The notes below the pieces were generated by a model. That model did not search any database, had not been told where the DNA came from, and saw only the letters and a list, made by a program, of their open reading frames with translations. Below are positions 9,008 to 61,770 of a DNA stretch of 64,000 nt, in pieces. Both the position numbers and the translations under genes were made by a program. Source of the stretch: Thermoanaerobaculia bacterium (GTDB lineage: Bacteria; Acidobacteriota; Thermoanaerobaculia; Multivoradales; SZUA-115); NCBI GenBank assembly GCA_036274895.1, contig DASUEU010000027.1, forward strand, positions 136,883-200,882. The letters are read 5' to 3'. Each line of letters starts with the position of its first letter. Positions within the stretch are counted from its first letter, which is position 1.

Positions 9008-9186
9008 GATCGTCGACCCCCTGGAGAAGGAAGACGAGCCTGCAGGCCACCGGCCCTCACCCTGGAGCCCGCGAGGGATCGAAATCCCACGCTACGGAGC
9101 CACCTCCCTGGCGGGCCTGAGCGAACGGAACTCGACGAGGCCATGCTGCGTAAGATGGTCGAGCTACCTCGAAAGGAGCCGATGCC

Positions 9187-9912
9187 ATGGCTGAAGCGAA
9201 GAAGACCAATCCCTGGGTGTGGGTGGCTGCCGGCTGCGGGGGTGTCATCGTGCTGGGCGGCCTGGCGATCATGGGCCTCGGCTGGTGGGGGTTCAACAAG
9301 GCCAAGAGCTTCGAGCGCCAGCTCAAGGATCCGGTCGCCCGCGAAGCGAGCGTGCGCGAGATCCTGGGTGCGGACTCGCTACCGGATGGCTACCACGCCC
9401 ACATGGGCATGTCCCTGCTCGGCTTCATGAAGATGGCCATGCTCTCCGACCGCGAGCTTCCCGCGGGGGAGGATCCGGGCGGCAAGGTCCCTTTCGACGA
9501 GCGGGGCTTCTTCTACTTCGACATGATGGCCGGCAGCAAGAACGCCAAGAAAGTCGAAGACTTCATCGCCGGCCGGATCGGCGTCGAGGAGATGCTCGAG
9601 GACACCAATGTCAACCTCGACCTCGACGAGGGCGAGAAGATCGCCGAAGGTCCGGTGGCCATCGCCGGCGGCCAGGCGCGCTATGTGGCGCAGCGGGGTG
9701 GTGTGGGCATGGGCGTCAAGCGCCAGGACGACAGCCTCAACACCATGGTGCTGGTGGACTGCCCGGGCGATCGCCGCTTCCGCTTCGCCATCTGGTTCGG
9801 CCCCGACCCCAACCCCGACGCGCCCGCCGACCAGTTGGACCTGACCGGCACTCCCGCCGACCCGGCGGCGCTCGAGGCGTTCCTGGGGCATTTCCATCTC
9901 TGTGGGAGATAG
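9187..9912 (+). CDS. Hypothetical membrane-anchored protein
   Basis: N-terminal TM helix (WVWVAAGCGGVIVLGGLAIMGLGWW). No recognisable domain. Coding-like GC3. Confidence 0.5.
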   Translation: MAEAKKTNPWVWVAAGCGGVIVLGGLAIMGLGWWGFNKAKSFERQLKDPVAREASVREILGADSLPDGYHAHMGMSLLGFMKMAMLSDRELPAGEDPGGKVPFDERGFFYFDMMAGSKNAKKVEDFIAGRIGVEEMLEDTNVNLDLDEGEKIAEGPVAIAGGQARYVAQRGGVGMGVKRQDDSLNTMVLVDCPGDRRFRFAIWFGPDPNPDAPADQLDLTGTPADPAALEAFLGHFHLCGR

Positions 9913-10098: not shown

Positions 10099-10884
10099 AT
10101 GACCGTCCGCACTTACAACAACTACCTGAAGATCGACGAGCTTCTCTCCCTCCAGCAGCCGGTCTCGGAGGGGCCGGAGCATGACGAGATGCTGTTCATC
10201 GTCATCCACCAGGTCTACGAGCTCTGGTTCAAGCAGATCCTCTGGGAGTTCGACTGGCTGCGCGGCGCCCTCGAGGCCAATGAGCGGCCGCGGACGATGG
10301 CGACCCTCAAGCGCATCCTGACCATCCTGAAGACCCTGGTCGGGCAGATCGACGTCCTCGAGACCATGACGCCGGTGGACTTCAGCTCGTTCCGCTCACG
10401 CCTGGACTCGGCGAGCGGCTTCCAGTCGGTGCAGTTCCGTGAGGTGGAGTTGGTGCTGGGGCATCGCCGCGAAGGTCAGCTCGATCACGTGCCGGCGGGG
10501 GGGCCCGAGCGCGCCCGCCTCGAAACACGACTCCGCGAACGCACTGTCTACGACTCCTTCCTGCGCTTCCTAGCTGCCAATGGTCACCCGGTACCGGCCG
10601 AGGTGCTGGACCGGGACGTCACGCAGGCACCCGCCGAGGACCAGCGGGTGCGCGCGATTCTGGTGGGCATCTACCGCCGGGACCCCGCCCTGCGCGAGAC
10701 CTGCGAGCGCCTGGTGGACCTCGACGAGGGGATCCAGGAGTGGCGCTACCGCCACGTCAAAATGGTGCAGCGCACCATCGGCACCAAGCGGGGCACCGGC
10801 GGATCGGCGGGGGCCGAGTACCTGCGCAACACTCTCTTCCAGCCTCTCTTCCCCGACCTCTGGGCCATCCGCACCGAGCTTTGA
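10099..10884 (+). CDS. kynA: Tryptophan 2,3-dioxygenase
   Basis: YNNYLKIDELLSLQ N-terminal signature and overall TDO-like sequence, ~260 aa. Confidence 0.85.
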   Translation: MTVRTYNNYLKIDELLSLQQPVSEGPEHDEMLFIVIHQVYELWFKQILWEFDWLRGALEANERPRTMATLKRILTILKTLVGQIDVLETMTPVDFSSFRSRLDSASGFQSVQFREVELVLGHRREGQLDHVPAGGPERARLETRLRERTVYDSFLRFLAANGHPVPAEVLDRDVTQAPAEDQRVRAILVGIYRRDPALRETCERLVDLDEGIQEWRYRHVKMVQRTIGTKRGTGGSAGAEYLRNTLFQPLFPDLWAIRTEL

Positions 10885-10904
10885 AGCCACCGCGAGGGAA
10901 CCGC

Positions 10905-12101
10905 ATGGACCTGTCCCAGCTCCGCCAGTCCCCCAACGCCCTCGCCCCACACTACTCACGTTTCCGCGTCGCCGAGCGGCTGCTGCTCACCGGCCACTCC
11001 CATCAGGCCTGGCCGGACTGCGCTCGAGAGGGGCAGCTTCAAGCCTTCGACGAGGCCGCCGCCTACGTGGACGGCAAGTGGCCGCACGCCTTTGCCAAGG
11101 CCGAGCGGGTGGCCCGGGGTCTCGCCGAGCGGATTGTGGACCCGAGCGGCAGCTATGCCCTGGCGGACTCGACCCACAGCCTGCTCGTCAAGTGGCTTTC
11201 GGCCCTGCCGTGGCGGGAGCGGCGCCGCATCGTCACCACGGACGGGGAGTTCCATGCCTTGCGGCGGCAGCTGGCCCGGCTGGAGGAGGAGGGCATCGAG
11301 GTGGTGCGGGTGCCGTCGCGACCGAGCGATGGGATCGCCGAGGGCCTCGCCGCCGCCGTGGACGACCGCACGGCCGCAGTGATGGTCTCGGCCGTGCTGT
11401 TTCGCAGTGCCGAGATCGTGCCCGGTTTGGAGCGGGTGCTGGCCGCGGCGCAGCGGGTGGGCGCCGAGCTGATGATCGACGCCTACCACGTGCTCAACGT
11501 GGTGCCTTTCCCTCTCGCCGAGCTGGGGTTGGAGGACGCCTTCGTGGTCGGGGGTGGCTACAAGTACCTGCAGATCGGCGAGGGCAACGCCTTCCTGCGC
11601 GTGCCGCGGGGACGGGACCTGCGGCCGGTGTTCACCGGCTGGTTCGCGGAATTCGCGGCCCTGTCCAGCCATCACGATCCGCTGCGGGTGGCCTACGGCC
11701 CCGGCGCCTCCGCCTTCGGCGCCGCCACCTACGACCCGACCAGCCAGTACCGCGCCGCGGCGGTGTTCGACTTCTTCGACGAGCAGGGCTTGACCGTGCC
11801 CTTCCTGCGCCAGGTCAGCCAGCACCAGGTGGGGCTGCTCGCCCGCCTCTTCGACGATCTCGACCTGCCGCCGGGGCTGATCTCTCGCGAGCGGGACGTG
11901 CCGCTGGAGCGCATCGGCGGCTTCCTGGCCCTGACCTCGCCCCGGGCCGGGGAGATCTCCGCCGCCCTCGCCCGCCGCGGTGTGGCCACCGACTACCGCG
12001 ACACCACCCTCCGCCTCGGCCCCGCCCCCTACCTCTCCGACCGCCAGATCGAAGAGGCCATGGGGCTGCTGGGGGAGGCGGTGCGGGAGGTGGCGGGGTA
12101 A
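10905..12101 (+). CDS. kynU: Kynureninase (PLP-dependent)
   Basis: LTGHSHQ and GGGYKYLQ.GEGNAFL motifs characteristic of kynureninase; RBS before the ATG at 10905. The longer six-frame ORF starting at 10740 is an out-of-frame extension. Confidence 0.8.
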   Translation: MDLSQLRQSPNALAPHYSRFRVAERLLLTGHSHQAWPDCAREGQLQAFDEAAAYVDGKWPHAFAKAERVARGLAERIVDPSGSYALADSTHSLLVKWLSALPWRERRRIVTTDGEFHALRRQLARLEEEGIEVVRVPSRPSDGIAEGLAAAVDDRTAAVMVSAVLFRSAEIVPGLERVLAAAQRVGAELMIDAYHVLNVVPFPLAELGLEDAFVVGGGYKYLQIGEGNAFLRVPRGRDLRPVFTGWFAEFAALSSHHDPLRVAYGPGASAFGAATYDPTSQYRAAAVFDFFDEQGLTVPFLRQVSQHQVGLLARLFDDLDLPPGLISRERDVPLERIGGFLALTSPRAGEISAALARRGVATDYRDTTLRLGPAPYLSDRQIEEAMGLLGEAVREVAG

Positions 12102-12237
12102 GATTCTCGGGCCGGAGAGGCCGGCTCTCGCCATGCACTCCTTGATCGAACGCTCGTGGCCACCGTTGAGCTAGTCATGGCCGAGGCTGGCGCAGATCGG
12201 TGAGGCCGCCTGGGCTAGAATCGCCCGGCCACTGACC

Positions 12238-13809
12238 ATGAGCATCGATTCCCCCTTCGAGGTTCCGGAGCGGTTCAACCTCGCCCAGCACCTGCTCGAC
12301 CGCCGCGTCGAGGAGGGGTTGGGCGAGAAGGTCGCGTTGCGCGTGGACGGCGCGGACGGCTCGACCCGCGAGTGGACCTACCGCGAGGTCTCGGAGCTGG
12401 CGCACCGCGTCGGGGACGTGCTGCGCCGGATGGGTGTCGAGCCCGAGCAGCGGGTGATCCTCGCCGTGGCCGACTCGGCCGAGTACGCGGGCTCCCTCTT
12501 CGCCATCCTGGGCATCGGGGCCGTGGCCGTGATGGTCAACCCCCGGCTCGCCCAGGACGATCTGGCGGCGATCTTCGAGTACACCCGCGCGAGCGCGGCG
12601 ATCGTCGAGAGTGAGGTGATGGCGACCTTCCTCGCCGCCCGGGGCGCGGGCCGCTATCCGCGCCGCCTGCTCACCGTGCGCGGAGCGGTGGACGGCTTCC
12701 CGGCCCTCGAGGAGGAGCTGGCGGCGAGCTCCGGGGACTCACCGCTCGAGCCCACCCACCGGGACGACCCGGCGATCTGGCTCTTCTCGGGCGGCACCAC
12801 CGGGCGGCCGAAGGCGGTGGTGCAGAGCCACGGCTCCTTCGCCAACACCACCGAGCTCTACGCTCGCCGGGCCCTGGGCTACCGGGCGAGCGACGTCACC
12901 CTTTCGGTCCCCAAGCTCTTTTTCGGCTACGCCACTGGCTCGAACCTCTTCTTCCCCTTCTCGGTAGGCGCCACGGCCGTGCTCTTCCCCGAGCACCCGA
13001 CCGCCGAGATCCTGTTCGAGAAGATCCGGCGCCACCGGCCGACCATCCTGATCAACGTGCCGACCATGGTGTCGCACATGAGCCAGCACCCCGAGGCCGG
13101 GTTGCAGGACCTCACCTGCCTGCGCTTCGCCACCTCGGCGGGGGAGGCCCTGCCGGTGGCTCTCTACCACCGCTTCAAGGAGACTTTCGGCGTCGAGCTG
13201 CTGGACGGGCTGGGCACAGCCGAGATGTGGCACATCTTCGTGACCAACCTGCCCGGGGCGGTCAAGCCGGGCACCCTGGGGCGCGTGGTGCCCGGCTTCG
13301 AGCTCAGGATCGTCGACGAGGAGGGCCGCGAGGTCGGCCCCGGCGAGGTCGGGCGGATGTGGGTGCGGGGCCATTCCCGCGCCCTCTGCTACTGGCAGGC
13401 GATGGGCAAGACGATGGAGGCCTTCCAGGGCGAGTGGTACGTGGGCGGGGACCTCGCCAGCCGCGACGAGGAAGGCTACGTCTCGTACCACGGCCGGGGG
13501 GACGAGGCCCTGAAGGTGGGCGGCAAGTGGCTGGTGCCGGCCGAGGTGGAGGGCTGTTTGCTGCGCCACCCGGCGGTCAAAGAATGCGCCGTGGTGGGCG
13601 TCGCCGACGCCAGCGGCCTGACCAAGCCCCACGCCTGGGTGGTCGCCAACACCACCGCCGACGCCGCCCTCGCCGAAGAGCTCAAAGCCTGGGCTCTCTC
13701 CCGCCTCGACGCCTACAAACACCCCCGCGAGATCCACTTCTCAGACGCCCTCCCCCGCACCCACCTGGGCAAGGTGGACCGTGGGAAGCTGCGGCGCGAA
13801 GGCGCCTGA
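12238..13809 (+). CDS. Benzoate-CoA ligase family AMP-forming aryl-CoA ligase (inferred anthranilate/2-aminobenzoate-CoA ligase)
   Basis: 523 aa with the SGGTTGRPK AMP-binding motif and a BadA/BclA-like N-terminus (FNLAQHLLDRRV...). The substrate assignment is inferred from the adjacent kynA-kynU. Confidence 0.75.
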   Translation: MSIDSPFEVPERFNLAQHLLDRRVEEGLGEKVALRVDGADGSTREWTYREVSELAHRVGDVLRRMGVEPEQRVILAVADSAEYAGSLFAILGIGAVAVMVNPRLAQDDLAAIFEYTRASAAIVESEVMATFLAARGAGRYPRRLLTVRGAVDGFPALEEELAASSGDSPLEPTHRDDPAIWLFSGGTTGRPKAVVQSHGSFANTTELYARRALGYRASDVTLSVPKLFFGYATGSNLFFPFSVGATAVLFPEHPTAEILFEKIRRHRPTILINVPTMVSHMSQHPEAGLQDLTCLRFATSAGEALPVALYHRFKETFGVELLDGLGTAEMWHIFVTNLPGAVKPGTLGRVVPGFELRIVDEEGREVGPGEVGRMWVRGHSRALCYWQAMGKTMEAFQGEWYVGGDLASRDEEGYVSYHGRGDEALKVGGKWLVPAEVEGCLLRHPAVKECAVVGVADASGLTKPHAWVVANTTADAALAEELKAWALSRLDAYKHPREIHFSDALPRTHLGKVDRGKLRREGA

Positions 13810-13815
13810 GGCTCC

Positions 13816-15337
13816 CTACTTTCCGATCCTCGCCCACCACTCCTTGGGCATCAGGTCGATGGGCAGGATGTAGCCGAGGTGGGAGTAGCCTTCGGTGTCC
13901 TCGACGGACGCGGTGGGGACGCCGATCAGGCGGAAGCTGCCGTCCAAGGCCGCGCCGCCGGAGTTGCCGGAGGCGATCTCGGCGTCGGTCTTGAGCACCA
14001 CACCGTGGCCGGTGGTGTCGAAGCCGCTGATCACCCCCCGGGTCAGGGTCACACTGGCCCGGCTGCCCAGGCCGCCGACGCTCGGGAAGCCCACGATGGT
14101 GATCGGCTCGCCCATGCGCAGGTTGCCGGGGTGGCCGAGCTCCAGGGCCGGGAAGCGGTAGCCGGCGGGCAGGGGCTGGCCATAGAAGCCGCTCTCGATC
14201 TTGACCAGGGCGAGGTCGAGGTCCTTGTCGTGGAGCTTGACGCTGCCCCGGAACATCTCCAGGGTGGGCCGGCGGGGGTCCAGGCAGAGGCCGATCACCA
14301 GCTCGCCGGGGGCGAGCAGGTTGCCGGCGTCGTCCTCGACCACGTGGTAGTTGGTGAGCACCCAGCCGTCGGGGGAGACCAGCGTGCCGCTGCCGGTCGC
14401 AGTCTCGGTCAAGATCTCGACGGTGCCGAGCAGGGCGCGGTCGAGCCCGTCGGTGGGGGCGCGCAAGGTCGGGATGGCCAGCAGCTCGGGCGGCGGCGTG
14501 GCCTCGAACCGCGCGTGCACGGTGAAGCCCACCGGATCCAGCTCGAAGGGGTCGAAGACGTTGACGTACCAGGTGCCGGCGGCCAAGGGAGGATCGGTCG
14601 AACGGTCGATCAGCAGCGTCTCGCGCCCCCGCACGCTCTCGGCCACCAGATCGGTGGGCTCGCGCTCGAAGATCGGCCGGCCGCGACGCGCGATCAGGTC
14701 GAGGTCGCCGTAGACGTCGTCGAGGTCGATGCGCAGCACGCGGGCCGTGGAGGGCACCTCGATGCGGAAGGTGCGGAACCAGCCGCTCTCGGGAGTGGTC
14801 TGGCTGGTGATCGGCTGGCCCGGGGCGAGAGGGCCGTCCACCCGGGCCTGGATGATCTCCGCGGTGAGGGTGAACGGCAGCTCGCGCGCCCGCTTCTTGC
14901 CGATGCGCGGCTCGCTCTCGAGGTTGTAGACCACGTCGATGTAGTAGACGCCGGGAGCAAGCGGCGGGTCGTTGGCGCGGGAGATGCGCAGGGTCTCGTT
15001 GTAGAGGTCGGAGATCGCTTCGTGCTCGGCGTCTTCCTCGTAGTCGAGGATCGGCGCGCCGTGGCGGGCGAAGAGGTCGAGGTCCACCGGCGAGCCGTCC
15101 AGGCGCAGGGTCAGCACCATGGCGTTCTCCGGCACGGTCACTCGAAAGCTCGCCCAGCGCTGCTCCCCCCAATCGATCACTCCGGCGGCGGGCCGGCCGA
15201 CCTCCAGGAAGGGACCGAGGTCCACCTCGGGGGTGGTGCCGCCAGCGCCTTCCTCCTCTTGGCCCCGGGCGAGCGCCGGCGCGAGCAGGCAGAGGGCGAC
15301 CAAGGCCCGGACGGCGCAGCGGCGTGCGGCGTTCACG
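13816..15337 (-). CDS. Secreted trypsin-like serine protease (S1 family) with two N-terminal PPC (pre-peptidase C-terminal) domains
   Basis: Signal peptide RRCAVRALVALCLLAPALA; two DLDL(F/I)ARxG PPC motifs; C-terminal TGSGTLV...NYHVV, DLALVK and GNSGGA catalytic triad context. GTG start inferred. Confidence 0.75.
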
Positions 15338-16478
15338 GCATCCCCCCGGCGACGATCAGGCCGCGGTCGGCGAGGGCTCTGGCGAAGCTCGGATCCCGGC
15401 GCCAGAGGCTCTCGGAACGCACCTTCTCGCTGCGCGTCATGGCCTTGAGGGCGAAAGCGAGGGGGTCGAGGTCGAGATCCTGGCGGGCGTTCTCGAACCA
15501 CTCGAGGCTGGCCTGGGCCGCCTGCTGGTAGGTCTCGACGCTCGGCCGGCGCTGCTCCTCGTAGGCGGCGAAGGCAGCGGGCAGGCCGGGCTCGCTGGCC
15601 AGGGCGTCGGCCAGGGCCACGGCGTCCTCCATGGCCAGCTTGGTGCCCGAGCCGATCGAGAAGTGAGCCGTGTGGACCGCGTCACCCAGCAGCACCGCCT
15701 TGCCGTGGCTCCACCGGCGGCAGCGCACGGTGGCGAACTGGATCCACCGCGACAGGTTCGAGAGCAGAGAGTAACCGTCGAGATCCTCCTCGAAGACCCC
15801 CTCCAGGAAGGCCCGGCTCTCCTCCTCGGCGGCCCGGTCGAGGCCGGCGGCGCGCCAGCTCTGCTCGTCGCACTCGACGATGAAGGTCGAGAGGTCCGGG
15901 CTGAACTTGTAGGAGTGGGCGATGTAGAGGCCCTGCGCCCGCTCGCGGAAGGTCAGGGTGAGGGCGTGGAAGAGGCGGTGGGTGCCGTACCAGACGTAGC
16001 GGTTCCGGCGGAAGTCGAGCTCCGGTCCGAAAGCGTCCCTCCAGGTCTCCCGCACCAGGCTTTTCACGCCGTCGGCGCCGACCAGCAGGTCGTGGGGGGG
16101 CAGCTCGTCGAGGCTGGTGATCTCGACCCCGAAGTGCAGGTCCACACCCAGCTCGCGGCATCGCTCCTGGAGCACCTGGAGGAGGGAGATGCGGGCGATG
16201 CCGGCGAAGCGGTTGCCGCCGATCGTCACCTTCTCGCCGCGATGGACGATCTCCAGGTTCTCCCAAGTGACCAGCCGCTCCTCGATCCGCTCCGAGACCA
16301 CGGGGTCGGGGGTCTCGAGCCCGGCCAGGGTCTTGCCCGAGAAGACCACGCCCCAGCCGAAGGTGCTGGAGGCGGGGTTGCGTTCGAGCACGGTCACCGA
16401 GCTGGCCGGCTCTCGCCCCTTGATCAGGGCCGCCAGGTAGAGCCCCGCCGGGCCTCCACCGAGGATCACGACCTTCAT
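15333..16478 (-). CDS. Class A FAD-dependent monooxygenase (salicylate-hydroxylase-like; candidate aryl-CoA monooxygenase component)
   Basis: MKVVILGGGPAGLY Rossmann fingerprint, DGVKSLVR and GDAVHTAH.GSG motifs. Its start overlaps the upstream OYE gene stop as ATGA. Confidence 0.8.
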   Translation of the reverse strand: MKVVILGGGPAGLYLAALIKGREPASSVTVLERNPASSTFGWGVVFSGKTLAGLETPDPVVSERIEERLVTWENLEIVHRGEKVTIGGNRFAGIARISLLQVLQERCRELGVDLHFGVEITSLDELPPHDLLVGADGVKSLVRETWRDAFGPELDFRRNRYVWYGTHRLFHALTLTFRERAQGLYIAHSYKFSPDLSTFIVECDEQSWRAAGLDRAAEEESRAFLEGVFEEDLDGYSLLSNLSRWIQFATVRCRRWSHGKAVLLGDAVHTAHFSIGSGTKLAMEDAVALADALASEPGLPAAFAAYEEQRRPSVETYQQAAQASLEWFENARQDLDLDPLAFALKAMTRSEKVRSESLWRRDPSFARALADRGLIVAGGMP

Positions 16479-17941
16479 GCGGGACCTCCTGCCGAAGGCT
16501 GCCAGGGGGGAGCGAGCAGGCGGCGCCGGCCGTCGGCGGCACGGGCGACCCCCGGCGCGTCGAGATCGAGCCGGTCCCACAGCTGGCAGGTCACCTGCTT
16601 GTGCACCTGGTCGAGACCCTCGCAGTAGTTGCAGTAAACACAGCGGCGGATCTCCTCCCCCGCCCCCAGCCTCATCTTGCGCCACCAGTCGGGGTCGGCC
16701 AGGCTCTGGCGGGCGGCCCCGACGACATCGGCGTCCCCCCGGGTGAGCAGGTCCTCGGCCTGGCGGAAGCTGGTGATGCCGCCGGTGGCGACGATGGGCG
16801 TCGAGAGGCCGGTCTCGCGCAGGGCGGCGCGGATCTGCCGGGCCGCGCCGAGGTTGCGGCCGAACGGCCCGCGGGCGTCGGAGAGCGCCGTGGGCATGCA
16901 CTCGTAGCCGGAGGGGCCGGTGTAGGGGTAGGCCGCCCAGCCCACTCGCGGCTGCTTGGCGTCCTCGAACTTGCCGCCGCGCGACAGCGACAGGAAGTCC
17001 ATCCCCGAGCGCGCCAGCTCGACCCCGAAAAAGCAGGCGTCCGCGAGCGTCGAGCCGTCATCGATCGCCTCGTCGGCGAGGTAGCGGCAGCCGACCGGAT
17101 AGCCCTCGCCGACTCGCTCGCGCACCCGGCGGAACACCTCGACGGGTAGGCGGATGCGGCCCTCGCGGGAGCCACCGTAGCCGTCGCTCCGGGAGTTGCG
17201 GGCGGAGAGGAAGGAGGCCATGGTGTAGGCGTGGGCGTAGTGCAGCTCCACGCCGTCGAAGCCCGCCTGCTGTGCCCGCACGGCTGCGGCCGCGAAGAGG
17301 TCGGGGAGCACCCGCGGCAGCTCGGCGATCTGGGGCAGGTGGAGGTCCGTGACCCGTTCGCGGTAGCCGAAGCGCAGGGCCTCGAGCTCGCGCTCGTCGA
17401 GCACGGCGGGCAGCTCGGCATCGGCCAAGGCGAGCAGGGCCTCGCGGACCGCCTCGTCGCCGAGACCGTGGCCGAAGAAGGCCCGGTGCCGGTCGGTCAG
17501 GGTGAGGAAGCGGCGAAAGAACTTCTCGGGCTCGGGGCGGCGGCGGATGGCGAGGAAGTCGATGATCTGGATCAGCAGCCGGGTGCGCCCGCCGCTCGCC
17601 CTCTTGACCGTCGCCACCAGCTCGGCGAGGCCGGGCAGGAAGCGGTCATGGCCGATGCGCAGCAGGGGGCCGCTCGGCACGTCGCGGATGCCGGTGGCCT
17701 CGACCACGAGGGCGCCGGGCTGGCCCTGGGCGAAGCGCTCGTACCAGGCCAGCACGTCGTCCGTCACGAAGCCATCCTCGGTGGAGCGCCAGGGCACCAT
17801 GGCCGGCACCCAGGTGCGCTCGGCGAGGGCCAACGGTCCCAACGAGATCGGCGAGAAGAGCCGCGAGCGCTCGGCCTCCTCCGCGCTCGGCCAGTCTCCC
17901 GGCGGACTCTCGTGCCTGATGCGCTCCGGCGGTTTCCACAT
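16475..17941 (-). CDS. Old-yellow-enzyme family FMN oxidoreductase with a 4Fe-4S motif (2,4-dienoyl-CoA-reductase-like N-domain)
   Basis: TIM-barrel OYE motifs (HYAHAY, GGSREGRIRL); C-terminal CVYC.YC...(11)...C cluster-binding signature (C-x2-C-x2-C-x11-C) as in FadH. Confidence 0.75.
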   Translation of the reverse strand: MWKPPERIRHESPPGDWPSAEEAERSRLFSPISLGPLALAERTWVPAMVPWRSTEDGFVTDDVLAWYERFAQGQPGALVVEATGIRDVPSGPLLRIGHDRFLPGLAELVATVKRASGGRTRLLIQIIDFLAIRRRPEPEKFFRRFLTLTDRHRAFFGHGLGDEAVREALLALADAELPAVLDERELEALRFGYRERVTDLHLPQIAELPRVLPDLFAAAAVRAQQAGFDGVELHYAHAYTMASFLSARNSRSDGYGGSREGRIRLPVEVFRRVRERVGEGYPVGCRYLADEAIDDGSTLADACFFGVELARSGMDFLSLSRGGKFEDAKQPRVGWAAYPYTGPSGYECMPTALSDARGPFGRNLGAARQIRAALRETGLSTPIVATGGITSFRQAEDLLTRGDADVVGAARQSLADPDWWRKMRLGAGEEIRRCVYCNYCEGLDQVHKQVTCQLWDRLDLDAPGVARAADGRRRLLAPPWQPSAGGPA

Positions 17942-17971: not shown

Positions 17972-19168
17972 TCAGGCCCCTTGGGAGCGCTTGAGCAGCT
18001 CACGGGCAATCACCAGGTGCTGGATCTCGGTGGTGCCCTCGTAGATGCGCAGGGCGCGGATCGAGCGATAGAGGCGGTCGACGGGGTGGTCGACCAGCAC
18101 CCCGCGGCCGCCCAGGATCTGCACCGCGCCGTCGACCACCCGCTGGGCCGCCTCCGCGGCGTAGGACTTGGCCATCGCCGCCTCGTAGGTGGCGCGGGGG
18201 GCACCGGAGGCGATCTCCCACGCCGCCCGGTAGGTCAAGAGGCGAGCCGCGGCCAGCTCGGTGGCCATCTCGGCGAGGCGGGCCTGCACCAGCTGGTGCT
18301 CGGCCAGGGGCCGGCCGAACTGCCGCCGCCCCCGGGCGTGGGCGAGGGCCTCCTCGAGGGCTCGGGCCGCCATGCCGCAGGCGGCCGCCGCCACCGTGGG
18401 GCGCAGCCGATCGAGGGTCGCGAGGCCGAGCTTGAAGCCCTCCCCCGGTCCTCCCAGCACGGCCTCGGCGCCGACCCGGCAGCCCCGAAAAGCGAGCTCC
18501 CCGAGCGGGTGCGGGGAGGAGAGCACCTGGGCGCGGACGAAGGTGAGGCCCGGGTCCCCGGCCTCGACCAGGAAGGCGCCGATGCCCTTGGCGCCGGCTC
18601 CCGGCGCGGTCTGGGCGAAGACCACGTAATAGTCGGCCACGCCGGCGTTGGTGATCAGGTGCTTGCCACCCTCGAGCACGTAGCCGTCGCCGTCGGCATG
18701 GGCGAGGGTGGTCATCGACGCCACGTCCGAGCCGGCCTCGGGCTCGGTCATGGCGAAGGCGGCCATGGCCTCCCCGGCCGCCACCCGCCCCAGCCAGCGG
18801 GCGCGGGCGGCGTCGTTGCCGGACAGGGTGAGGGGCATCGAGCCCAAGCCCTGGAGGGCGAAGACGGAGTCCGCCAGGGGCGAGGCAGCAGCCAGGGCCT
18901 CACGGATCAGGCACAGGGCCAGGGCGTCCGGAGCTCCGGCAACGCCGCCCCAGGCCTCGGGGATCGCCCACCGGCAGAGCCCGGCTCTCCCCAGCTCGCC
19001 GAGCAACTCCCGGGCCTCGACCCGCGCCGCCTCGTCCGTCAGCGCCTCCGGCCGCCCGGCCAGCCGCTCCCTGGCGAACGTCTCGGCCTCCCGGGCCAGG
19101 TCCAGGTGGCGCTCCGCGAGGAAGGGCTTGAGCAGAGCCAGGTCGTGCCAGCCCATCCCGGCGCTCAT
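17972..19168 (-). CDS. Acyl-CoA dehydrogenase
   Basis: 398 aa with ACAD-family architecture (…GGRGVLVDHPVDRLYR…). Confidence 0.8.
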   Translation of the reverse strand: MSAGMGWHDLALLKPFLAERHLDLAREAETFARERLAGRPEALTDEAARVEARELLGELGRAGLCRWAIPEAWGGVAGAPDALALCLIREALAAASPLADSVFALQGLGSMPLTLSGNDAARARWLGRVAAGEAMAAFAMTEPEAGSDVASMTTLAHADGDGYVLEGGKHLITNAGVADYYVVFAQTAPGAGAKGIGAFLVEAGDPGLTFVRAQVLSSPHPLGELAFRGCRVGAEAVLGGPGEGFKLGLATLDRLRPTVAAAACGMAARALEEALAHARGRRQFGRPLAEHQLVQARLAEMATELAAARLLTYRAAWEIASGAPRATYEAAMAKSYAAEAAQRVVDGAVQILGGRGVLVDHPVDRLYRSIRALRIYEGTTEIQHLVIARELLKRSQGA

Positions 19169-19965
19169 CGGAAGACCGCCTTGCGCTTGTCGACGAAGGC
19201 GCGGTGGGCCTCCTTGAAGTTGGGGTCGAGCATGCAGGCGGCCTGGATCTCGGTCTCGGCGGCCAATGCGCTCTCGAAGTCCATCGTCTGCTCCCTCAGC
19301 ACCATCATCTTGGTCACCGAGAGGCCGAACGACGGCCCGCGGGCGAGCCTCTCCGCCCAGGCGCGGGCTTCGGTCAGGGCTTCGCCGTCCGCCACCACCC
19401 GGTTGTAGAGGCCCATGGCGCAGGCGTCGCGGGCCGAGACGAAGTCCCCGAACATCAGCAGCTCCATGGCCCGGCCCTGGCCGACCAGCCTGGGCAGTAG
19501 CCAGGAGGCGCCCATGTCCGCACCCGAGAGCCCGACCTTGGTGAACAGGAAGGCGATCTTGGCGCTCTCGGCGGCCACGCGCAGGTCGCAGGCCGAGGCG
19601 ATCACCGCGCCGGCCCCGGCGACGGTGCCGTTCAAGGCGCCGAGGATCGGCCGGCGGCAGCGCAGCATGGCGAGGATCAGGGCGCCGGTCGCGCGGGTGA
19701 ACTCCAGCAGGCCCTGGAAATCACGCTCGAGCAGGGGCCCGATGATGTCCTCGACGTCGCCTCCCGAGCAGAAGGCCCGGCCCTCGCCGGTGAGCACGAT
19801 GGCGCGCACCCCCTCCTCTCCGTCGAGGGCGCGGAAGGTCTCCGCGAGCTCGCGGTAGACCTCGAAAGTCAGGGCGTTCAAGCGCTCGGGGCGCGAGAGG
19901 GTGATGGTGGCCACGCCGGTGTCGGCGTCATGGTGGTAGCGGAAGCTCTCGGGCGCGATGGGCAT
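19165..19965 (-). CDS. Enoyl-CoA hydratase/isomerase (crotonase family)
   Basis: ITLSRPERLNAL...AFCSGGDV oxyanion-hole motifs; overlaps the downstream ACAD by 4 bp. Confidence 0.85.
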   Translation of the reverse strand: MPIAPESFRYHHDADTGVATITLSRPERLNALTFEVYRELAETFRALDGEEGVRAIVLTGEGRAFCSGGDVEDIIGPLLERDFQGLLEFTRATGALILAMLRCRRPILGALNGTVAGAGAVIASACDLRVAAESAKIAFLFTKVGLSGADMGASWLLPRLVGQGRAMELLMFGDFVSARDACAMGLYNRVVADGEALTEARAWAERLARGPSFGLSVTKMMVLREQTMDFESALAAETEIQAACMLDPNFKEAHRAFVDKRKAVFR

Positions 19966-20019: not shown

Positions 20020-20436
20020 TCAGCGACTCTGTGGCTCAGGCACCACGGCCGTGGCTTCGATCTCGACCTTGGCCTCGGGCACTACCAGGGCCGCCACCTG
20101 GAGCAAGGCCATGGCCGGGTAACAGCGGCCCATCACCCGGCGGTAGGCCTCGCCCACGGCCGAAAGATCCGCCAGATACTCGGCGCACGAGGTGACGTAG
20201 AAGTTGATGCGGCCGATGTGCTCCGGCCCACCCCCGGCCGCTCGCACCACCGCGAGCACGTTGCCGAGGGCTGCTTCGAACTGTTCGATGAAGGTGGTGC
20301 CGCGCAGCTGGCCCCCGGCGTCCCAGGCGATCTGCCCGGCGACGAAGAGCAGGCGCCCTCCGGGCGGCGCCAGCATGCCGTTCGAGTAGCCCCGTGGCGC
20401 GCCCAGGGACTCGGGGTTGATCGGGGTCATGGCCGC
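20020..20436 (-). CDS. RidA/YjgF/TdcF family enamine/imine deaminase
   Basis: ~140-aa C-terminal portion of the long ORF 20020..21036. The start could be at 20436 or 20448. The upstream 600 nt of that ORF is an artefact overlapping the SDR gene. Confidence 0.7.
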   Translation of the reverse strand, partial: AAMTPINPESLGAPRGYSNGMLAPPGGRLLFVAGQIAWDAGGQLRGTTFIEQFEAALGNVLAVVRAAGGGPEHIGRINFYVTSCAEYLADLSAVGEAYRRVMGRCYPAMALLQVAALVVPEAKVEIEATAVVPEPQSR

Positions 20437-20438
20437 GC

Positions 20439-21218
20439 TCATGGGATGTAACCTCCGCCGTCGAGCACCCAGGCCTGACCGTTGACCCCCTTGGCCCGCG
20501 GATCGCACAGGCAGCGCACCAGATAGGCCACCTCCTCGGGCTCGAAGATCCGGCCCTGGGGGCTCATCTTGGCCAGGCGGGTGCGGGCGTCCTGGTCCGA
20601 AAGCCCCGTCTTCTCGCGGATCTTGGCCACCGACTGCTCGGTCATCGGGGTGGCGACGTAGCCGGGGCAGACGGCGTTGACCGTCACCCCCTTGGCGGCG
20701 AGCTCCAGGGCGAGCGAGCGGGTCAGACCGATGACGGCATGCTTGGTGGCGGTGTAGGCCGAGATGTAGGGAGCCCCGGCCAGGCCGGCCACCGAGGCGA
20801 CGTTGACCACCCGCCCCCAGCCGCGGCTCGCCATCTCCGGGGCGAACTCCTTGGCGCAGAGGAAGACCCCGTGGACGTTGACCTGCATCAGCCTCTCGAG
20901 CTCGGACAGCTCGAGCAGCTTGAGTGGTGCCGAGGAGGCGATGCCGGCGTTGTTGACCAGGATGTCGACCTGGCCGAAGGCCTCGCGGGCGGCGCGGCCG
21001 AGGGCTTCCACCTCGTCGGGCAGGGTGACGTCGCACCGCGCGGCGGCGGCCCGGTAGCCCTGGCTCACCAGGCTCGCGGCCACCGCCTCGACGTCGGAGC
21101 GGGAACGGGCGGCGACCATCACGGCCGCCCCCTCGCGGGCCAGCTCGGCCGCCACCGCGGCGCCGATGCCTCGGCCGCCGCCGGTGACGACGGCCGTCTT
21201 GCCGGAAAGCGCGCTCAT
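20439..21218 (-). CDS. SDR family oxidoreductase (3-hydroxyacyl-CoA dehydrogenase/FabG-like)
   Basis: TGGGRGIG cofactor motif, NNAG, and the S...Y..K catalytic motif (YTATK). Confidence 0.85.
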   Translation of the reverse strand: MSALSGKTAVVTGGGRGIGAAVAAELAREGAAVMVAARSRSDVEAVAASLVSQGYRAAAARCDVTLPDEVEALGRAAREAFGQVDILVNNAGIASSAPLKLLELSELERLMQVNVHGVFLCAKEFAPEMASRGWGRVVNVASVAGLAGAPYISAYTATKHAVIGLTRSLALELAAKGVTVNAVCPGYVATPMTEQSVAKIREKTGLSDQDARTRLAKMSPQGRIFEPEEVAYLVRCLCDPRAKGVNGQAWVLDGGGYIP

Positions 21219-21997
21219 CCTTCTCCTCCCAGGGCTGCGATCACCGCATCCGCGACGATGCCGCCCAGCTCATGGATCGTGGCGCGACCCTCTTCGGCGG
21301 TGGCCGCCGCCGGGTCGCCGAAATAGGCCATGGGTCCTCCGGCCTCGGCGAAGGTGCGCTGGCCGGCGCGGATCGCCTCCGAGAGGGAGCGGGGGTTGGC
21401 GGCGAGCTGCCGCGCCCGGCCCTGGCGCACCCGCTCGGGCTGGGCGGCGAGGACGATCGAGGTCTCGTATTGGCCGGCGTGGCAGGCCCCGGAGCGCAGC
21501 TCCTCGGTCAGCCGCAGGGCCCAGGGCTTCCTGGCGACGTTGGGGAAGACCACCGGCACGCTGCCTCGGGACCGGGCGGCGACCACCGCAGCTTCGAGCG
21601 CCGCCAGGTGGGCCGGGTCGAGGTGAGCGTTGGCCAGGGCCAGGGCGCGGGCTCCCTGTCGGGTCCAGGCCAGGGCGAGGTCGGCCACCAGGGCCGTGAC
21701 CGTCTCGGCCGTCACCGACAGAGTGCCGGGAAAGGCATCTGCGAAGGGGGCCGCGACGTAGTCGAGGCCCGGGAGCACCACGGCCGTCCAGCCCGCCCGG
21801 GCCAGGATCTCGGCCCCGGCGCTGGCCATGGCCCCGGCGATGATGCCGTCGGTGAGCAGGGAGAGGTGGGGACCGTGGGCCTCGACGGCGCCCACCGGCA
21901 GGATGCCCACCAGCCGCTCCCTGGGGAGGGCTGCGAATTCCGTCCAGGTCAGGGCGGCCAGCTCGAGCGCCGCGCCGCCGGTCTCGGGTTGGCTCAT
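21215..21997 (-). CDS. Creatininase-family amidohydrolase
   Basis: ILPVGAVEAHGPHL and CHAGQYETS motifs of the creatinine amidohydrolase family. Confidence 0.7.
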   Translation of the reverse strand: MSQPETGGAALELAALTWTEFAALPRERLVGILPVGAVEAHGPHLSLLTDGIIAGAMASAGAEILARAGWTAVVLPGLDYVAAPFADAFPGTLSVTAETVTALVADLALAWTRQGARALALANAHLDPAHLAALEAAVVAARSRGSVPVVFPNVARKPWALRLTEELRSGACHAGQYETSIVLAAQPERVRQGRARQLAANPRSLSEAIRAGQRTFAEAGGPMAYFGDPAAATAEEGRATIHELGGIVADAVIAALGGEG

Positions 21998-22731
21998 CGC
22001 GCTCGGGGCTCACTGGCGACGAAGACGGCGGCGATCGAGCCCACTCCCTCGAGCCGCGCCAGGGAGACCGGCTCGAAGCGGTAGGAGGCGGCGCTCACCC
22101 CGGCGGGACCGGGAGCGGCGAAGTCCGGGCCGACGCCCGGCGGCGGCAGCTGCCCGAAGAGCTCGAGACGGCCGAAGCGGGAGCGCAGCAGATCCTCCCA
22201 CTCCCAGAGGTAGAGATTGTTGGGTTGGAAGCTCGAAGCGCGGTGCCGCTCGAGGGTGGTCTCGTCGATCACGGGTGGCACCGAGGCGATCAGGCGACCT
22301 TCTGGGGTGAGGTGCGAGGCCGCCCAGGACACCGCCCGGTCCAAGTCGAGGAGCTGAGCGAGCACGTTGCCGGCGACGATCAGCTCGAAGGAGCCGTTCG
22401 GGCCCCCGGCGCTGTCGAAGGAGCGACAGGAGAAGGTGATCCGGGGGTCGCTGTAACGCCGCCGGGCGAAGGCGACGGACTTGGGGTCGGGATCGAGGGC
22501 CGCCACCGACCGCGCCCCGGCGCGCAGCAGCTCGGCGGCGCCGTAGCCGGTGCCGCAGCCGAGGTCACAGACTGTTCGTCCCTCGGCGAAGCGGCCGGCG
22601 AAGAGATAGAAGCCGAGGTGGGCCTCGAAGAGATCATTGGCCACCACCGGCGCCACCGCCCGGCTTCCCGGCGGCAGGCCGTAGCGCAAGCGGGCCAGAC
22701 GGTTCCTGACACGGCGAAGAAGCGAGGCCAT
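21994..22731 (-). CDS. Class I SAM-dependent methyltransferase
   Basis: DLGCGTGY motif I; AGGAGGG RBS before the ATG at 22731; overlaps the creatininase start by 4 bp. Confidence 0.7.
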   Translation of the reverse strand: MASLLRRVRNRLARLRYGLPPGSRAVAPVVANDLFEAHLGFYLFAGRFAEGRTVCDLGCGTGYGAAELLRAGARSVAALDPDPKSVAFARRRYSDPRITFSCRSFDSAGGPNGSFELIVAGNVLAQLLDLDRAVSWAASHLTPEGRLIASVPPVIDETTLERHRASSFQPNNLYLWEWEDLLRSRFGRLELFGQLPPPGVGPDFAAPGPAGVSAASYRFEPVSLARLEGVGSIAAVFVASEPRAR

Positions 22732-56319: not shown

Positions 56320-57105
56320 CTACCGCCACTTCGGCGGCGCTTTGGTCTCGAGGAAGGTCGCCATGCCGTGGCGACAGTCCTCGGTGGTGCGGGACGCGGC
56401 GTTGGCTTCGGTGGCGAGGTCGAGGCGTTCGGCCAGGGGGCGGCCGTAGATCTCGAGCAGCAGGCGCTTGGTGCGGGCGATCGACTCCGAGCTGGCCTTC
56501 TCGAGGATGCCGGTGGCCAGCCGCTCGCCCTCGGCGTGGAGGGACCCGGGAGCCGCGACGCGGTTGGCGAGGCCGATCTCGAAGGCCCGTGGGCCGCCGA
56601 TGGGCTCCGGGTTGATCAGCAGCTCGCGAAGGTCCGAGCCCCGCAGGCGTAGCGGCAGATAGGTCGCCACCAGGGCGGCCACGAAGCCGATCCGCACTTC
56701 GCTGTAGAGGAACTTGGCATCCTCGGCGGCGACCACGAAGTCATGCGCGGTGGCCAGACCACAGCCGCCGGCCACGCACCAGCCGTGCACCAGGGCCACG
56801 GTCAGCGCCTCCTGCCGCAGCACCGCCTCGAACAGGCCGCGCAGGCGCCGTGAGTCCTCCAGGTTCTCGTCGGGACTGGCGCCCTGCAACGACTTCAGGT
56901 GCTCGATGTCTGCGCCGGCGCAGAAGTGCTTGCCGGCGCCGGCCAGCAGAATGGCCCGCACCCCCTCCGAGCGCCAGGGGTGAAGGTAAAGCTCCGTGAC
57001 CTCGGCAAGGAGCGCCGGGGAGAGGGCGTTGGCGCGGTCGGGGTTGTTGAGGGTGACCCACAGCAGGTCATCCCGGCGGTCGACGAGCAAGTTGGTGAAA
57101 GTCAT
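56320..57105 (-). CDS. Enoyl-CoA hydratase/isomerase family protein
   Basis: LNNPDRANAL...HFCAGADI crotonase motifs; start at MTFTNLL. Confidence 0.8.
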   Translation of the reverse strand: MTFTNLLVDRRDDLLWVTLNNPDRANALSPALLAEVTELYLHPWRSEGVRAILLAGAGKHFCAGADIEHLKSLQGASPDENLEDSRRLRGLFEAVLRQEALTVALVHGWCVAGGCGLATAHDFVVAAEDAKFLYSEVRIGFVAALVATYLPLRLRGSDLRELLINPEPIGGPRAFEIGLANRVAAPGSLHAEGERLATGILEKASSESIARTKRLLLEIYGRPLAERLDLATEANAASRTTEDCRHGMATFLETKAPPKWR

Positions 57106-57112
57106 GGTCCGG

Positions 57113-57457
57113 CTAGCTGCGCAGGTCGCGCAGGGGCGTGCCCTCCGGCACCTCGATCTCAAGGGTGAGCAGCCCCTGGCCGTGGGTCTTGCCCTGGGCG
57201 TCGTTGATCAGGCTCTCGGTGCCGCCCCCGCCCAGGGAGTCGTGGAGCATGAAGTTCAAGGCCAGCAGGTTGGGCACCTCCCAGCGCTCCACCCGGCCGC
57301 GGCACACCAAGCGGAAGTGCTCCTTCACCCGCTCGGGAGTCACCTCGCGGCGCAGGATCTCGAAGTGGGCCGGAGAGTCGGCGATCAGACCGACGTTCGA
57401 GGCGTCCCCTTTGTCTCCGGACCGGGCGTGGGCGATTCTCTCCAGGCGTGCTCTCAT
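57113..57457 (-). CDS. DUF4387 family protein (AtuA-associated small subunit)
   Basis: ~114 aa; ATGA-coupled to the upstream small membrane ORF. This small partner typically accompanies DUF1446/AtuA proteins. Confidence 0.55.
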   Translation of the reverse strand: MRARLERIAHARSGDKGDASNVGLIADSPAHFEILRREVTPERVKEHFRLVCRGRVERWEVPNLLALNFMLHDSLGGGGTESLINDAQGKTHGQGLLTLEIEVPEGTPLRDLRS

Positions 57458-57789
57458 CCTGCGGCCCCCACGGGCATCAGGGCCGTGAAGCCCAGGGTCA
57501 ACTCTTCCCAATGGCGATGGGCGAGCAAGGCGAAGAGGGCCGCCGCACCCAGCCACACGGCGAGCGGCGCGCCGCGGCGAACCATCGGCTTCGCCGCGAG
57601 GAAGGTGCGGTGCAGGACCGTCACGTAGAGGGCCCCGGCCGCCAGGGCCCAGCCGGCGAAGATCAGCCGATCCGCCGCCGCGCTGGCCAGGAAGCCTCCG
57701 AGGAGGATCGGCGCCAGCCCTCCCACCAGGGCCGCATACCAGCGCCACAGGGGATAGCCCGCTGCCGCGCCCGCCGTGCCCGCGCTCAT
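57454..57789 (-). CDS. Small membrane protein (111 aa, ~3 TM) inserted between AtuA-like and DUF4387 genes
   Basis: GGAGGAGG RBS. ATGA overlaps with both neighbours. Hydrophobic segments. Confidence 0.55.
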   Translation of the reverse strand: MSAGTAGAAAGYPLWRWYAALVGGLAPILLGGFLASAAADRLIFAGWALAAGALYVTVLHRTFLAAKPMVRRGAPLAVWLGAAALFALLAHRHWEELTLGFTALMPVGAAG

Positions 57790-59153
57790 ACCTCCTCCAC
57801 GCTGACCCGCACGTGGCGCTCCACCTCTTCGCGCGCCAGCAGAGCCGGCCAGTAGGCCACGATCGGCTGCGGCTTGGGCCGGCCGCCCGCGAAGCCGGTG
57901 ACTCCCGGCGGGCCAGAGGTGACCAGGGGTGCGATCTCCTTGCCGAAGCGCTCCACCCGCTCGGGCGAAGGGTCGCGCACTCCCAGGCGCAGCACCACCT
58001 CGGGCGGGTCCGCCGGGGGGGCGAAGATCCCGGGCAGGCACGCTCCCAGGCCCAGGTACTCCTCCGAACGGTTCTCGGGGGCGAAGACAGTGCCCGACCG
58101 CTCCAGCCGCTTCCACACGATCTCCGCCGCCAGACGGGCCTTCTCGAGCGCGCGCGGGCCGGAGACCGTGAGCTGCCCCGAGGCCTTGTAGCCGGCCAGG
58201 TAGGAGGCCGAGATCTTGAGGAAGGGAGTGTTGGCGCCGCCCCGAATTCCGGACACCCGCACCCGATCGGTGTCCTCTTGGGCGAGGCGGATGCTGGTGA
58301 AGTCCGCCGTCACGTCGGGGGTGACGTAAGAGCGGGGATCCCCCATCTCGTAGAGCAACTGCTCGGCGACGGTGTCGACCGTGACCATGCCGCCGGTGCC
58401 GGCGTGCTTGGTGACCACGAAGCTGCCGTCCTCGCAGACCTCGGCCACCGGGTAGCCGACGTTCCACAGGTCCGGCACCTCCCACCAGCGGGTGAAGTTG
58501 CCGCCCGTGCACTGCGGGCCGCACTCGAGGACGTGGCCGGCGATGGTACCTGCCGCCAGGCGATCCCAGTCCTCGCTTCCCCATCCAAACTCATGGATCA
58601 GAGGGGCGAGGGCCAGGGCAGTGTCGGTGATGCGGCCGGCCAGGACGATCTGGGCGCCCTGGTCGAGGGCCTCGACGGCGGGCCGCGCCCCCAAATAGGC
58701 GTTGGCGCTGGTCACCTTGTCGAGGTGGGCGGCGAGGGGCTCGCCGCTGTCCATGTTGGCCAGGGGGTGGCCCGCCGCCACCAGCTCCGGCAGGCGAGCG
58801 ACCAGGTCGTCTCCCTCGACCACGCCGACCCGAATCCCCGTCACCCCCAGCTCTCGGGCGACGGCGAAGATCCGCTCCCGGCAGGCACGAGGGTTCAATC
58901 CTCCGGCGTTGGTGAGGATTCGTGTTCCTCGTTTCTTCAGCTCGGGCAGGACGCGGCGGATGAAGTCGATGAAATCGGTGGCATAGCCCAGGGAAGGGTC
59001 CTTGAGCTTCTGCCGCATCATGATCGAGAGGGTCACCTCGGCGAGGTAGTCCATGCCGAGATAGTCGAGGGGGCCCCCTCGCAGGAGATCGACCGGGGCA
59101 TCGACGTTGTCCCCCCAGAAGCCCTGGCCGTTCCCCACCCGCACTTTCTTCAT
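57786..59153 (-). CDS. Acyclic terpene utilisation AtuA-family protein (DUF1446)
   Basis: N-terminus MKKVRVGNGQGFWGD typical of AtuA/DUF1446; ~455 aa. Confidence 0.7.
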   Translation of the reverse strand: MKKVRVGNGQGFWGDNVDAPVDLLRGGPLDYLGMDYLAEVTLSIMMRQKLKDPSLGYATDFIDFIRRVLPELKKRGTRILTNAGGLNPRACRERIFAVARELGVTGIRVGVVEGDDLVARLPELVAAGHPLANMDSGEPLAAHLDKVTSANAYLGARPAVEALDQGAQIVLAGRITDTALALAPLIHEFGWGSEDWDRLAAGTIAGHVLECGPQCTGGNFTRWWEVPDLWNVGYPVAEVCEDGSFVVTKHAGTGGMVTVDTVAEQLLYEMGDPRSYVTPDVTADFTSIRLAQEDTDRVRVSGIRGGANTPFLKISASYLAGYKASGQLTVSGPRALEKARLAAEIVWKRLERSGTVFAPENRSEEYLGLGACLPGIFAPPADPPEVVLRLGVRDPSPERVERFGKEIAPLVTSGPPGVTGFAGGRPKPQPIVAYWPALLAREEVERHVRVSVEEV

Positions 59154-59235
59154 AGAGCCCGTAAGGTTAGCACGGCAACATTTGGCCATCCGTCTCCCAC
59201 GAGCCGGGGTCTTGCATGTTTCTTGAAGCAGACGG

Positions 59236-59625
59236 TTGCAGATGGCTGGAGCAGACGAGAAGTGCTATCGCCGGGTGGTGATCGACGGCTTCGAGGTGCT
59301 GGTCGGCAAGAGCGCCGCCGACAACGACCGGCTGACCTTCCGGGTCGCCCGTCCTCGCGACTTCTGGATGCACGTCGCCGGCTACTCCGGGAGCCACGTG
59401 GTGGTGGTGAACCCCGAGGGCCTGGCCGAGCTGCCGCGGGAGGTGCTCCAGAGGGCCGCGGAGCTCGCAGCCTGGAGCTCGAAGGCGAGGGAGGCCGGGG
59501 GCAAGGTCGAGGTCCACGTCTGCCGGGCGAGCGACGTCTCGAAGCCCCGCGGCCTGCCGGCGGGCAAGGTGCAGTTGCGGAGATGGGATTCGATCCGCGT
59601 TTACGCGAGGGAAAGTGACGCTTAG
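59236..59625 (+). CDS. DUF814/NFACT-R domain protein
   Basis: FRVARPRDFWMHVAGYSGSHVVV motif of the NFACT-R (DUF814) RNA-binding domain. Confidence 0.6.
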   Translation: MQMAGADEKCYRRVVIDGFEVLVGKSAADNDRLTFRVARPRDFWMHVAGYSGSHVVVVNPEGLAELPREVLQRAAELAAWSSKAREAGGKVEVHVCRASDVSKPRGLPAGKVQLRRWDSIRVYARESDA

Positions 59626-59654
59626 AGCCGTCTACATGAGACGGAGGACGTTCG

Positions 59655-60002: not shown

Positions 60003-60004
60003 CC

Positions 60005-61669: not shown

Positions 61670-61770
61670 GGCCGGTGGATTATAGGAGAGGGTCTCCCGC
61701 CAGGACGCTTCCGCGAATTACGTCTACACCGTAGAGAGGTCGCCCGCGGCCATGCAAAGAGGAGGTAGAC

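Follow-up and report, generated by a model that had tools for sequence, protein, structure and literature searches.

What do a Rid-family protein and a creatininase-family metallohydrolase contribute to an operon for breakdown of an aromatic acyl-CoA? The question is raised by positions 20020-21997, minus strand, of a 64,000-nucleotide stretch (G+C ~70%) of Thermoanaerobaculia bacterium contig DASUEU010000027.1, called the window below. The initial annotation, made from the sequence alone, put a RidA gene and a creatininase-family gene between those of an SDR and a crotonase, and saw in them a previously undescribed means of dealing with nitrogen-containing ring-cleavage intermediates. Both genes are present where it located them, together with a third; the three are translationally coupled and run from creatininase-family hydrolase through SDR to Rid-family protein:

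21215-21997, minus strand: creatininase-family binuclear metallohydrolase, 260 aa (PF02633, E 1.8e-47), a candidate aryl-formamidase
20439-21218, minus strand: short-chain dehydrogenase/reductase (SDR), 259 aa (PF00106, E 5e-64)
20020-20442, minus strand: Rid (YjgF/L-PSP) family protein, 140 aa (PF01042, E 2.3e-19)

Only the Rid gene thus lies between SDR and crotonase. The explanation that we favour is that the interval forms the front end of a tryptophan/anthranilate supercluster using the aerobic CoA-dependent ('hybrid') 2-aminobenzoyl-CoA route, a pathway for anthranilate known since about 1990. Association of a Rid gene with this pathway is already known; the creatininase-family gene is the new element. 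Taken as a whole, with the creatininase-family protein acting as an aryl-formamidase, the explanation is a tentative one, somewhat short of probable.

The case for a supercluster is comparative. Species-representative genomes were scanned with an alignment of 32 creatininase orthologues, yielding 80 loci (52-64% identical; designated below by L and a number), and the gene content of these was read by tblastn with the window proteins. The loci come from Gemmatimonadota, Eisenbacteria, Acidobacteriota, Polyangia, 'Multivoradales' and one planctomycete, and a common order recurs among them: a divergent ligase gene, then creatininase-SDR-Rid-crotonase-acyl-CoA dehydrogenase (ACAD)-ACMR (fused or split)-tryptophan 2,3-dioxygenase (TDO)-kynureninase, ACMR being the key enzyme of the pathway, named 'bifunctional salicylyl-CoA 5-hydroxylase/oxidoreductase' in RefSeq. 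The four-gene cassette SDR-Rid-crotonase-ACAD is complete in 52 of the 58 loci with at least 4 kb of downstream sequence; the SDR orthologue, present also in canonical ACMR clusters, is found in 53 of 58. Because 52 of 58 related loci share the cassette the arrangement is far beyond chance, and the tryptophan/anthranilate set proves to be conserved across at least five phyla. These counts bear out the first proposal to the extent that both genes are conserved parts of, and dedicated to, an operon for anthraniloyl-CoA (ACMR) catabolism.

No single neighbour stays with the creatininase gene more persistently than the divergent ligase gene, with which it is paired in 54 of the 64 loci whose upstream flank is present. 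A TDO and/or kynureninase-like gene lies within 10 kb in 20 of the 33 loci having at least 9 kb on both sides. Six loci have no ring cassette: in L061, L064, L083 and L088 the ligase is the sole pathway gene left beside the creatininase gene, and in L021 and L063 the creatininase gene stands with ligase, TDO and kynureninase, in the order creatininase-TDO-kynureninase in L063. The creatininase-like hydrolase is apparently an undescribed conserved cluster member in several little-studied phyla.

In the window, third-position GC and domain searches delimit a minus-strand operon of nine genes: methyltransferase, creatininase, SDR, Rid, crotonase, ACAD, OYE (old yellow enzyme)-like reductase, FAD monooxygenase and trypsin-like protease. 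Convergent with it, on the plus strand, are the genes for TDO, a kynureninase-like enzyme and an aryl-CoA ligase. Besides the three genes of the interval, those with a place in the pathway are:

19165-19965, minus strand: crotonase-family protein of PRK08258 type, 266 aa (NF006107, 358.5 bits, cut-off 330)
17972-19168, minus strand: ACAD, 398 aa (Pfam Acyl-CoA_dh N, M and C domains)
16475-17941, minus strand: OYE-like FMN reductase, 488 aa (PF00724, E 2.8e-38)
15333-16478, minus strand: FAD monooxygenase, 381 aa (NF006101, 451.9 bits, model positions 1-380 of 768)
12238-13809, plus strand: benzoate-CoA ligase family enzyme (TIGR02262, 466 bits, cut-off 375)
10902-12101, plus strand: kynureninase-like PLP enzyme (KYNU_C, 27.6 bits)
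10099-10884, plus strand: TDO (TIGR03036, 273 bits, E 2.4e-81, below the cut-off of 390)

Overlaps of 4 bp (ATGA) join methyltransferase to creatininase, creatininase to SDR, SDR to Rid, crotonase to ACAD and OYE to monooxygenase; the overlaps first reported are therefore real on both sides of the SDR gene, but Rid and crotonase are 54 bp apart. The ligase is presumed to be the anthranilate-CoA ligase and the crotonase is a candidate ring-opening hydrolase or hydratase; the NCBIfam model nearest to the SDR is that of 3-hydroxybutyrate dehydrogenase, with a score just under the cut-off.

An ACMR-type enzyme had been assumed for this operon and is present, though divided between an OYE-like gene and, following it, an FAD monooxygenase gene, the reverse of the domain order in the fused enzyme. 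To judge by the model matches, the FAD monooxygenase is the hydroxylase half of ACMR/salicylyl-CoA 5-hydroxylase and the OYE-like protein a separate reductase partner. The window has no single protein of ~770 aa scoring above the 1078 bits that define fused ACMR (NF006101/PRK08255), such as the canonical one of L090 (1158 bits, cut-off 1078), and its OYE-like protein matches only positions 545-671 of PRK08255. The split form occurs in 14 loci, whose OYE-like orthologues are 61-91% identical; with the reductase half of the fused ACMRs that related loci encode, the window OYE shares only 28-32% identity. Four cysteines of the OYE-like protein (C348, C434, C440, C452) are invariant; C437 of the CxxCxxC-like motif is not conserved, and we make no claim for an Fe-S site there.

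How the set compares with known ACMR clusters was examined by searching annotated plasmids with the crotonase protein, which gave 215 records (~50% identical orthologue), and inspecting six canonical clusters, those of Paracoccus, Ralstonia, Sphingomonas, Sinorhizobium and Phyllobacterium and one on a Gemmatirosa plasmid. All six have a RidA-family gene beside SDR, crotonase, ACAD and ligase, and five have fused ACMR, which was not seen in the Sphingomonas stretch. The view of RidA as new to the pathway must consequently be abandoned. The Rid proteins of proteobacterial clusters, among those compared, are 43-46% identical to that of the window. 'Putative translation inhibitor protein' is an old name of the Rid family, and a protein so named was reportedly listed in the Azoarcus evansii cluster paper of 2001 from Schühle et al. 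Altogether the ACMR ('abm') clusters of A. evansii and other Proteobacteria contain the same SDR, PRK08258 crotonase, ACAD, RidA-family, ligase and ACMR set, with proteins 43-52% identical to the window's. Compared with them, ACMR in the window is split in two, in reversed order and with an OYE of different lineage; genes for MarR regulator, thioesterase and ABC transporter are all lacking; and a creatininase-family gene has been added and TDO and kynureninase-like genes joined. A creatininase gene is lacking from every one of the six canonical clusters inspected, and among 72,556 plasmids searched by tblastn none matches the creatininase protein at 1e-15. The operon is thus a variant of the known 2-aminobenzoyl-CoA cluster, with split and permuted ACMR, tryptophan-cleavage genes and a conserved creatininase-family hydrolase.

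The Rid protein of such a cluster had been taken for RidA, whose enamine/imine hydrolysis was then transferred to the ACMR product. The transfer does not hold as it stood. Membership of the YjgF/L-PSP family is clear (PF01042, 70 bits, gathering score 27.3), but against the NCBI RidA model TIGR00004 the protein scores 48.9 bits, far below the cut-off of 106.25, and in place of the arginine of RidA (Arg105 of 8v8r; E. coli TdcF/RidA numbering) it has Met111. Among 76 cluster-linked orthologues this position is Met in 67, Val in 8, Thr in 1 and Arg in none. What it has in common with RidA, beyond the family, is the conserved Glu and aromatic residue: E127 and E129 (compare RidA Glu120) are nearly invariant, and all 76 have W, Y or F at position 19 (RidA Tyr17). 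5v4f, the closest solved structure, likewise has no Arg at the Arg105 position. The Rid gene has long accompanied ACMR, and its product is not a true RidA.

2-Imino acids are bound by RidA through their carboxylate, which the arginine holds; the product of ACMR is a thioester. Because that carboxylate is absent from the CoA thioester, deamination of the ACMR enamine product by the Rid protein can still reasonably be inferred, although not by simple transfer from RidA: in contrast to RidA and to Arg-less Rid5/6-like proteins such as Yersinia pestis Y3550, it would probably act on an enamine that is a CoA thioester, not on a 2-imino acid. Against this stands the finding that Arg105 is essential for imine hydrolysis by RidA (PMC4433059) and that the Arg-less Rid proteins so far tested, of Rid4-7 type, did not hydrolyse imines (PMC4433059, PMC7221256); in the survey of the family (PMC4433059) neither anthranilate nor acyl-CoA contexts are mentioned. 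The protein might then not be the deaminase at all but, for example, a regulator, chaperone or tautomerase, with ammonia lost spontaneously or through another enzyme. We consider this rather unlikely, though an alternative of some substance, given that the Rid gene goes with ACMR clusters in groups ranging from Proteobacteria to Acidobacteriota, that loss of Arg fits a changed substrate with no carboxylate to bind, and that Glu127/Glu129 and an aromatic side chain at position 19 are retained.

The creatininase-family protein belongs, to judge by its scores, to an uncharacterised subfamily. It matches PF02633 at 162.2 bits (gathering score 31.3) and lies below every curated NCBIfam equivalog cut-off searched: 105.7 bits (E 2.6e-30) against the MftE model TIGR03964 (cut-off 172), the best-scoring characterised relative; 78.5 bits against the creatininase model TIGR04448 (EC 3.5.2.10; cut-off 235); and 28.4 bits (E 7.9e-07) against the IolN model NF041098 (3-dehydro-scyllo-inosose hydrolase; cut-off 245). 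Structure prediction, suggested as a check for the binuclear metal site, gave an AF2 model of creatininase fold (pLDDT 90; Foldseek E 1e-13, TM 0.63-0.70 to creatininase-family chains), and alignment shows the metal ligands to be conserved: the metal and catalytic residues E39, H41, D50, H125, D127, H173 and E178, aligned to 1j2t, are invariant in the 32 orthologues and correspond to Glu34, His36, Asp45, His120, Glu122, His178 and Glu183 of the Pseudomonas putida enzyme. With P. putida creatinine amidohydrolase (1j2t, 3a6j) the protein therefore shares fold (TM 0.63-0.68, 24-26% identity), metal ligands and catalytic His; it differs in the substitution of Asp (D127) for Glu122, in a gene context unrelated to creatinine and in having no pocket tryptophans, W154 and W174, which are mutated in PDB 3a6e-h, being aligned with Pro152 and Gly170 in an HMMER alignment only. 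MftE, the mycofactocin peptidyl-dipeptidase, is likewise an amide hydrolase; a mycofactocin context was considered and rejected, no radical-SAM or mft genes being present among the annotated window genes or conserved neighbours and the MftE score lying below cut-off. The Longimicrobiales contig of L083 carries two copies of the creatininase clade ~8 kb apart (1616-2338 and 10657-11391), 64% and 62% identical to the window protein, of which only the first adjoins the ligase gene.

Conversion of tryptophan to anthranilate needs three enzymes, and of these only the formamidase is without an identified gene at the loci. The kynureninase-like protein is divergent in sequence, with no NCBIfam match and a KYNU_C score at threshold; a Streptomyces protein that RefSeq lists as 'kynureninase' shares 58% identity with it, Deinococcus kynU only 27.5%. 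(The Streptomyces homologue adjoins TDO and benzoate-CoA ligase genes in an enediyne-type cluster.) The KynB metal motif HxG[T/A]HxDxPxH (PMC6117287) was sought in the window and 160 loci without a credible match, the one regex match falling in a stop-interrupted frame; neither this motif nor the Deinococcus-type alpha/beta hydrolase occurs in the window or in 1.43 Mb of loci, and the rest of the window offers no other formamidase candidate. An ORF upstream of TDO (9154-9912) was considered and rejected, as it is non-conserved and membrane-anchored and has no Pfam match. The initial annotation had the creatininase-like protein acting on ring intermediates; the comparative evidence favours the upper pathway, tryptophan to anthraniloyl-CoA, at least equally. 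Because of the gap in that pathway, the persistence of the gene with ligase, TDO and kynureninase, and its absence from the six canonical clusters, we favour by analogy a role as upstream formamidase over one in handling a ring-cleavage intermediate.

This role gains weight because the kynurenine pathway is not conserved at its formamidase step, for which unrelated folds serve (PMC4243253), and because a 'creatininase' of Sinorhizobium meliloti, SMc02977/BrbF, has proved to be an aryl-formamide hydrolase (PMC9478397): annotated as creatinine amidohydrolase, it removes the N-formyl group from an aromatic amine, the chemistry proposed here. BrbF has another substrate and acts in another pathway, riboflavin synthesis, and the parallel drawn with the window protein is one of annotation and proposed chemistry. 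Archaeal ArfB, which we take to be of the same family, carries out the same reaction as BrbF. KynB (cyclase fold) and AFMID-type enzymes (alpha/beta hydrolase) would share the proposed reaction on unrelated folds, and KynB, as proposed for the creatininase-family enzyme, uses binuclear metal attack on the formamide (PMC4243253). A literature search found no paper linking the creatininase family with kynurenine formamidase or anthranilate. An alpha/beta hydrolase gene (L008/L096, plasmid 1 of Paracoccus denitrificans PD1222, 612229-613047; also L091, 5774-6625) ends the Paracoccus ACMR cluster, and its product shares 36% identity with the hydrolase whose gene is translationally coupled to kynU-kynA in Deinococcus; because of this resemblance, a formamidase-like gene may also travel with ACMR clusters in Proteobacteria.

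As we envisage the route, TDO would convert tryptophan to N-formylkynurenine, and the creatininase-family metallohydrolase would remove the formyl group from it or, after kynureninase has acted, from N-formylanthranilate, replacing the KynB or alpha/beta-hydrolase formamidases absent from the loci. The ligase would then form anthraniloyl-CoA. From the ACMR product the Arg-less Rid protein would promote hydrolytic loss of ammonia, giving 2,5-dioxocyclohexanecarboxyl-CoA, whose ring crotonase, SDR and ACAD would open and oxidise. Arthrobacter grown on anthranilate contains CoA esters consistent with hydroxyanthraniloyl-CoA and cyclohexanedione-carboxyl-CoA (PMC3534580), which fit deamination before ring opening.

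Several observations weigh against the formamidase proposal. The creatininase gene keeps closer company with SDR-Rid-crotonase-ACAD (90%, and coupled by ATGA) than with TDO/kynureninase (61%), and ten fully flanked loci have cassette and creatininase gene with no TDO within 10 kb (L010, L022, L028, L037, L060, L067, L068, L071, L081, L087). Metagenome loci anchored on TDO and having enough flank comprise ~12 with the whole cluster and ~26 with TDO alone or with kynureninase only; in those without the full cluster no recurrent hydrolase lies beside TDO, so that a neighbouring formamidase is not obligatory in these lineages. The search for formamidases covered the loci and the window, and synteny counts such as 52 of 58 are drawn from related lineages rather than from independent events. 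Finally, the steps following ACMR are indeed undescribed, as had been stated, the 2022 pathway curation having left the route out because too little was known of it (PMC9007349), and a creatininase-family enzyme could find a place among them.

Such a role in the lower pathway, on an alicyclic CoA ester, could be metal-assisted deamination of a cyclic enaminone or an IolN-like C-C ring opening. The position of the gene at the front of the ring operon, its overlap with SDR and its retention with the cassette all speak for it, as do the weak IolN match and certain unusual loci: L004/L022, L028 and L067 keep the set with no TDO, kynureninase or ligase nearby, and L053 keeps creatininase-SDR-Rid without crotonase and ACAD. 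We nevertheless regard it as doubtful, and the narrower claim that the protein is the enzyme processing the non-aromatic ACMR product as unlikelier still: the six canonical clusters have the other ring genes and no creatininase gene, crotonase and Rid already cover ring opening and deamination, and the six cassette-less loci keep the creatininase gene with ligase, or with ligase, TDO and kynureninase. A housekeeping or salvage function, in which the enzyme replaces a PaaI-type thioesterase (for dead-end 5-hydroxyanthraniloyl-CoA) or hydrolyses other N-acyl-anthranilates feeding the ligase, would suit the persistence of the ligase and the lack of the thioesterase of the Paracoccus, Ralstonia and Sinorhizobium clusters in 78 of 80 creatininase-type loci, but is very improbable, thioesterase replacement being the weaker, third option since the two genes co-occur in L010 and L071, and we know of no creatininase-family enzyme that hydrolyses thioesters.

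The window and ~90 related loci show the anthranilate pathway to be widespread in poorly studied phyla of soil and sediment (Gemmatimonadota, Acidobacteriota, Eisenbacteria, Polyangia), physically joined there to tryptophan cleavage and fitted with a fixed extra component, an uncharacterised creatininase-family metallohydrolase. Should this be the formamidase, the kynurenine pathway would have a third, non-homologous enzyme for its most variable step, and many 'creatinine amidohydrolase' annotations would be corrected; should it act on a ring intermediate, it would give a direct handle on the lower pathway, as the first defined step after ACMR, and a new reaction type for the creatininase fold. 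The 'RidA' of the cluster represents a Rid subfamily without the Arg, for which there is a defined substrate candidate; this is useful since Arg-less subfamilies have, to our knowledge, no known function.

The two genes at the ends of the operon were considered as pathway parts and rejected, being conserved in the closest relatives only:

21994-22731, minus strand: SAM-dependent methyltransferase (Methyltransf_25/11), first gene of the operon
13816-15330, minus strand: secreted trypsin-like protease with PPC domain, last gene of the operon

The methyltransferase, conserved only in L001/L002, is probably accessory; a non-homologous methyltransferase gene follows ACAD in L004/L022, and another adjoins the creatininase gene in L088. 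The protease, with no obvious pathway link, is conserved only in the Thermoanaerobaculia relatives L001-L003, and in L001 its start overlaps the monooxygenase stop codon. In L003, of the same class, a PIN/PhdYeFM toxin-antitoxin pair (11941-12650) is inserted between ACAD and OYE, the operon being otherwise collinear. Elsewhere in the window, at 56320-61717 on the minus strand, lies a separate acyl-CoA cluster (enoyl-CoA hydratase, AtuA, carboxyltransferase), unrelated to the anthranilate operon, which looks like one for acyclic terpene or leucine-type catabolism.

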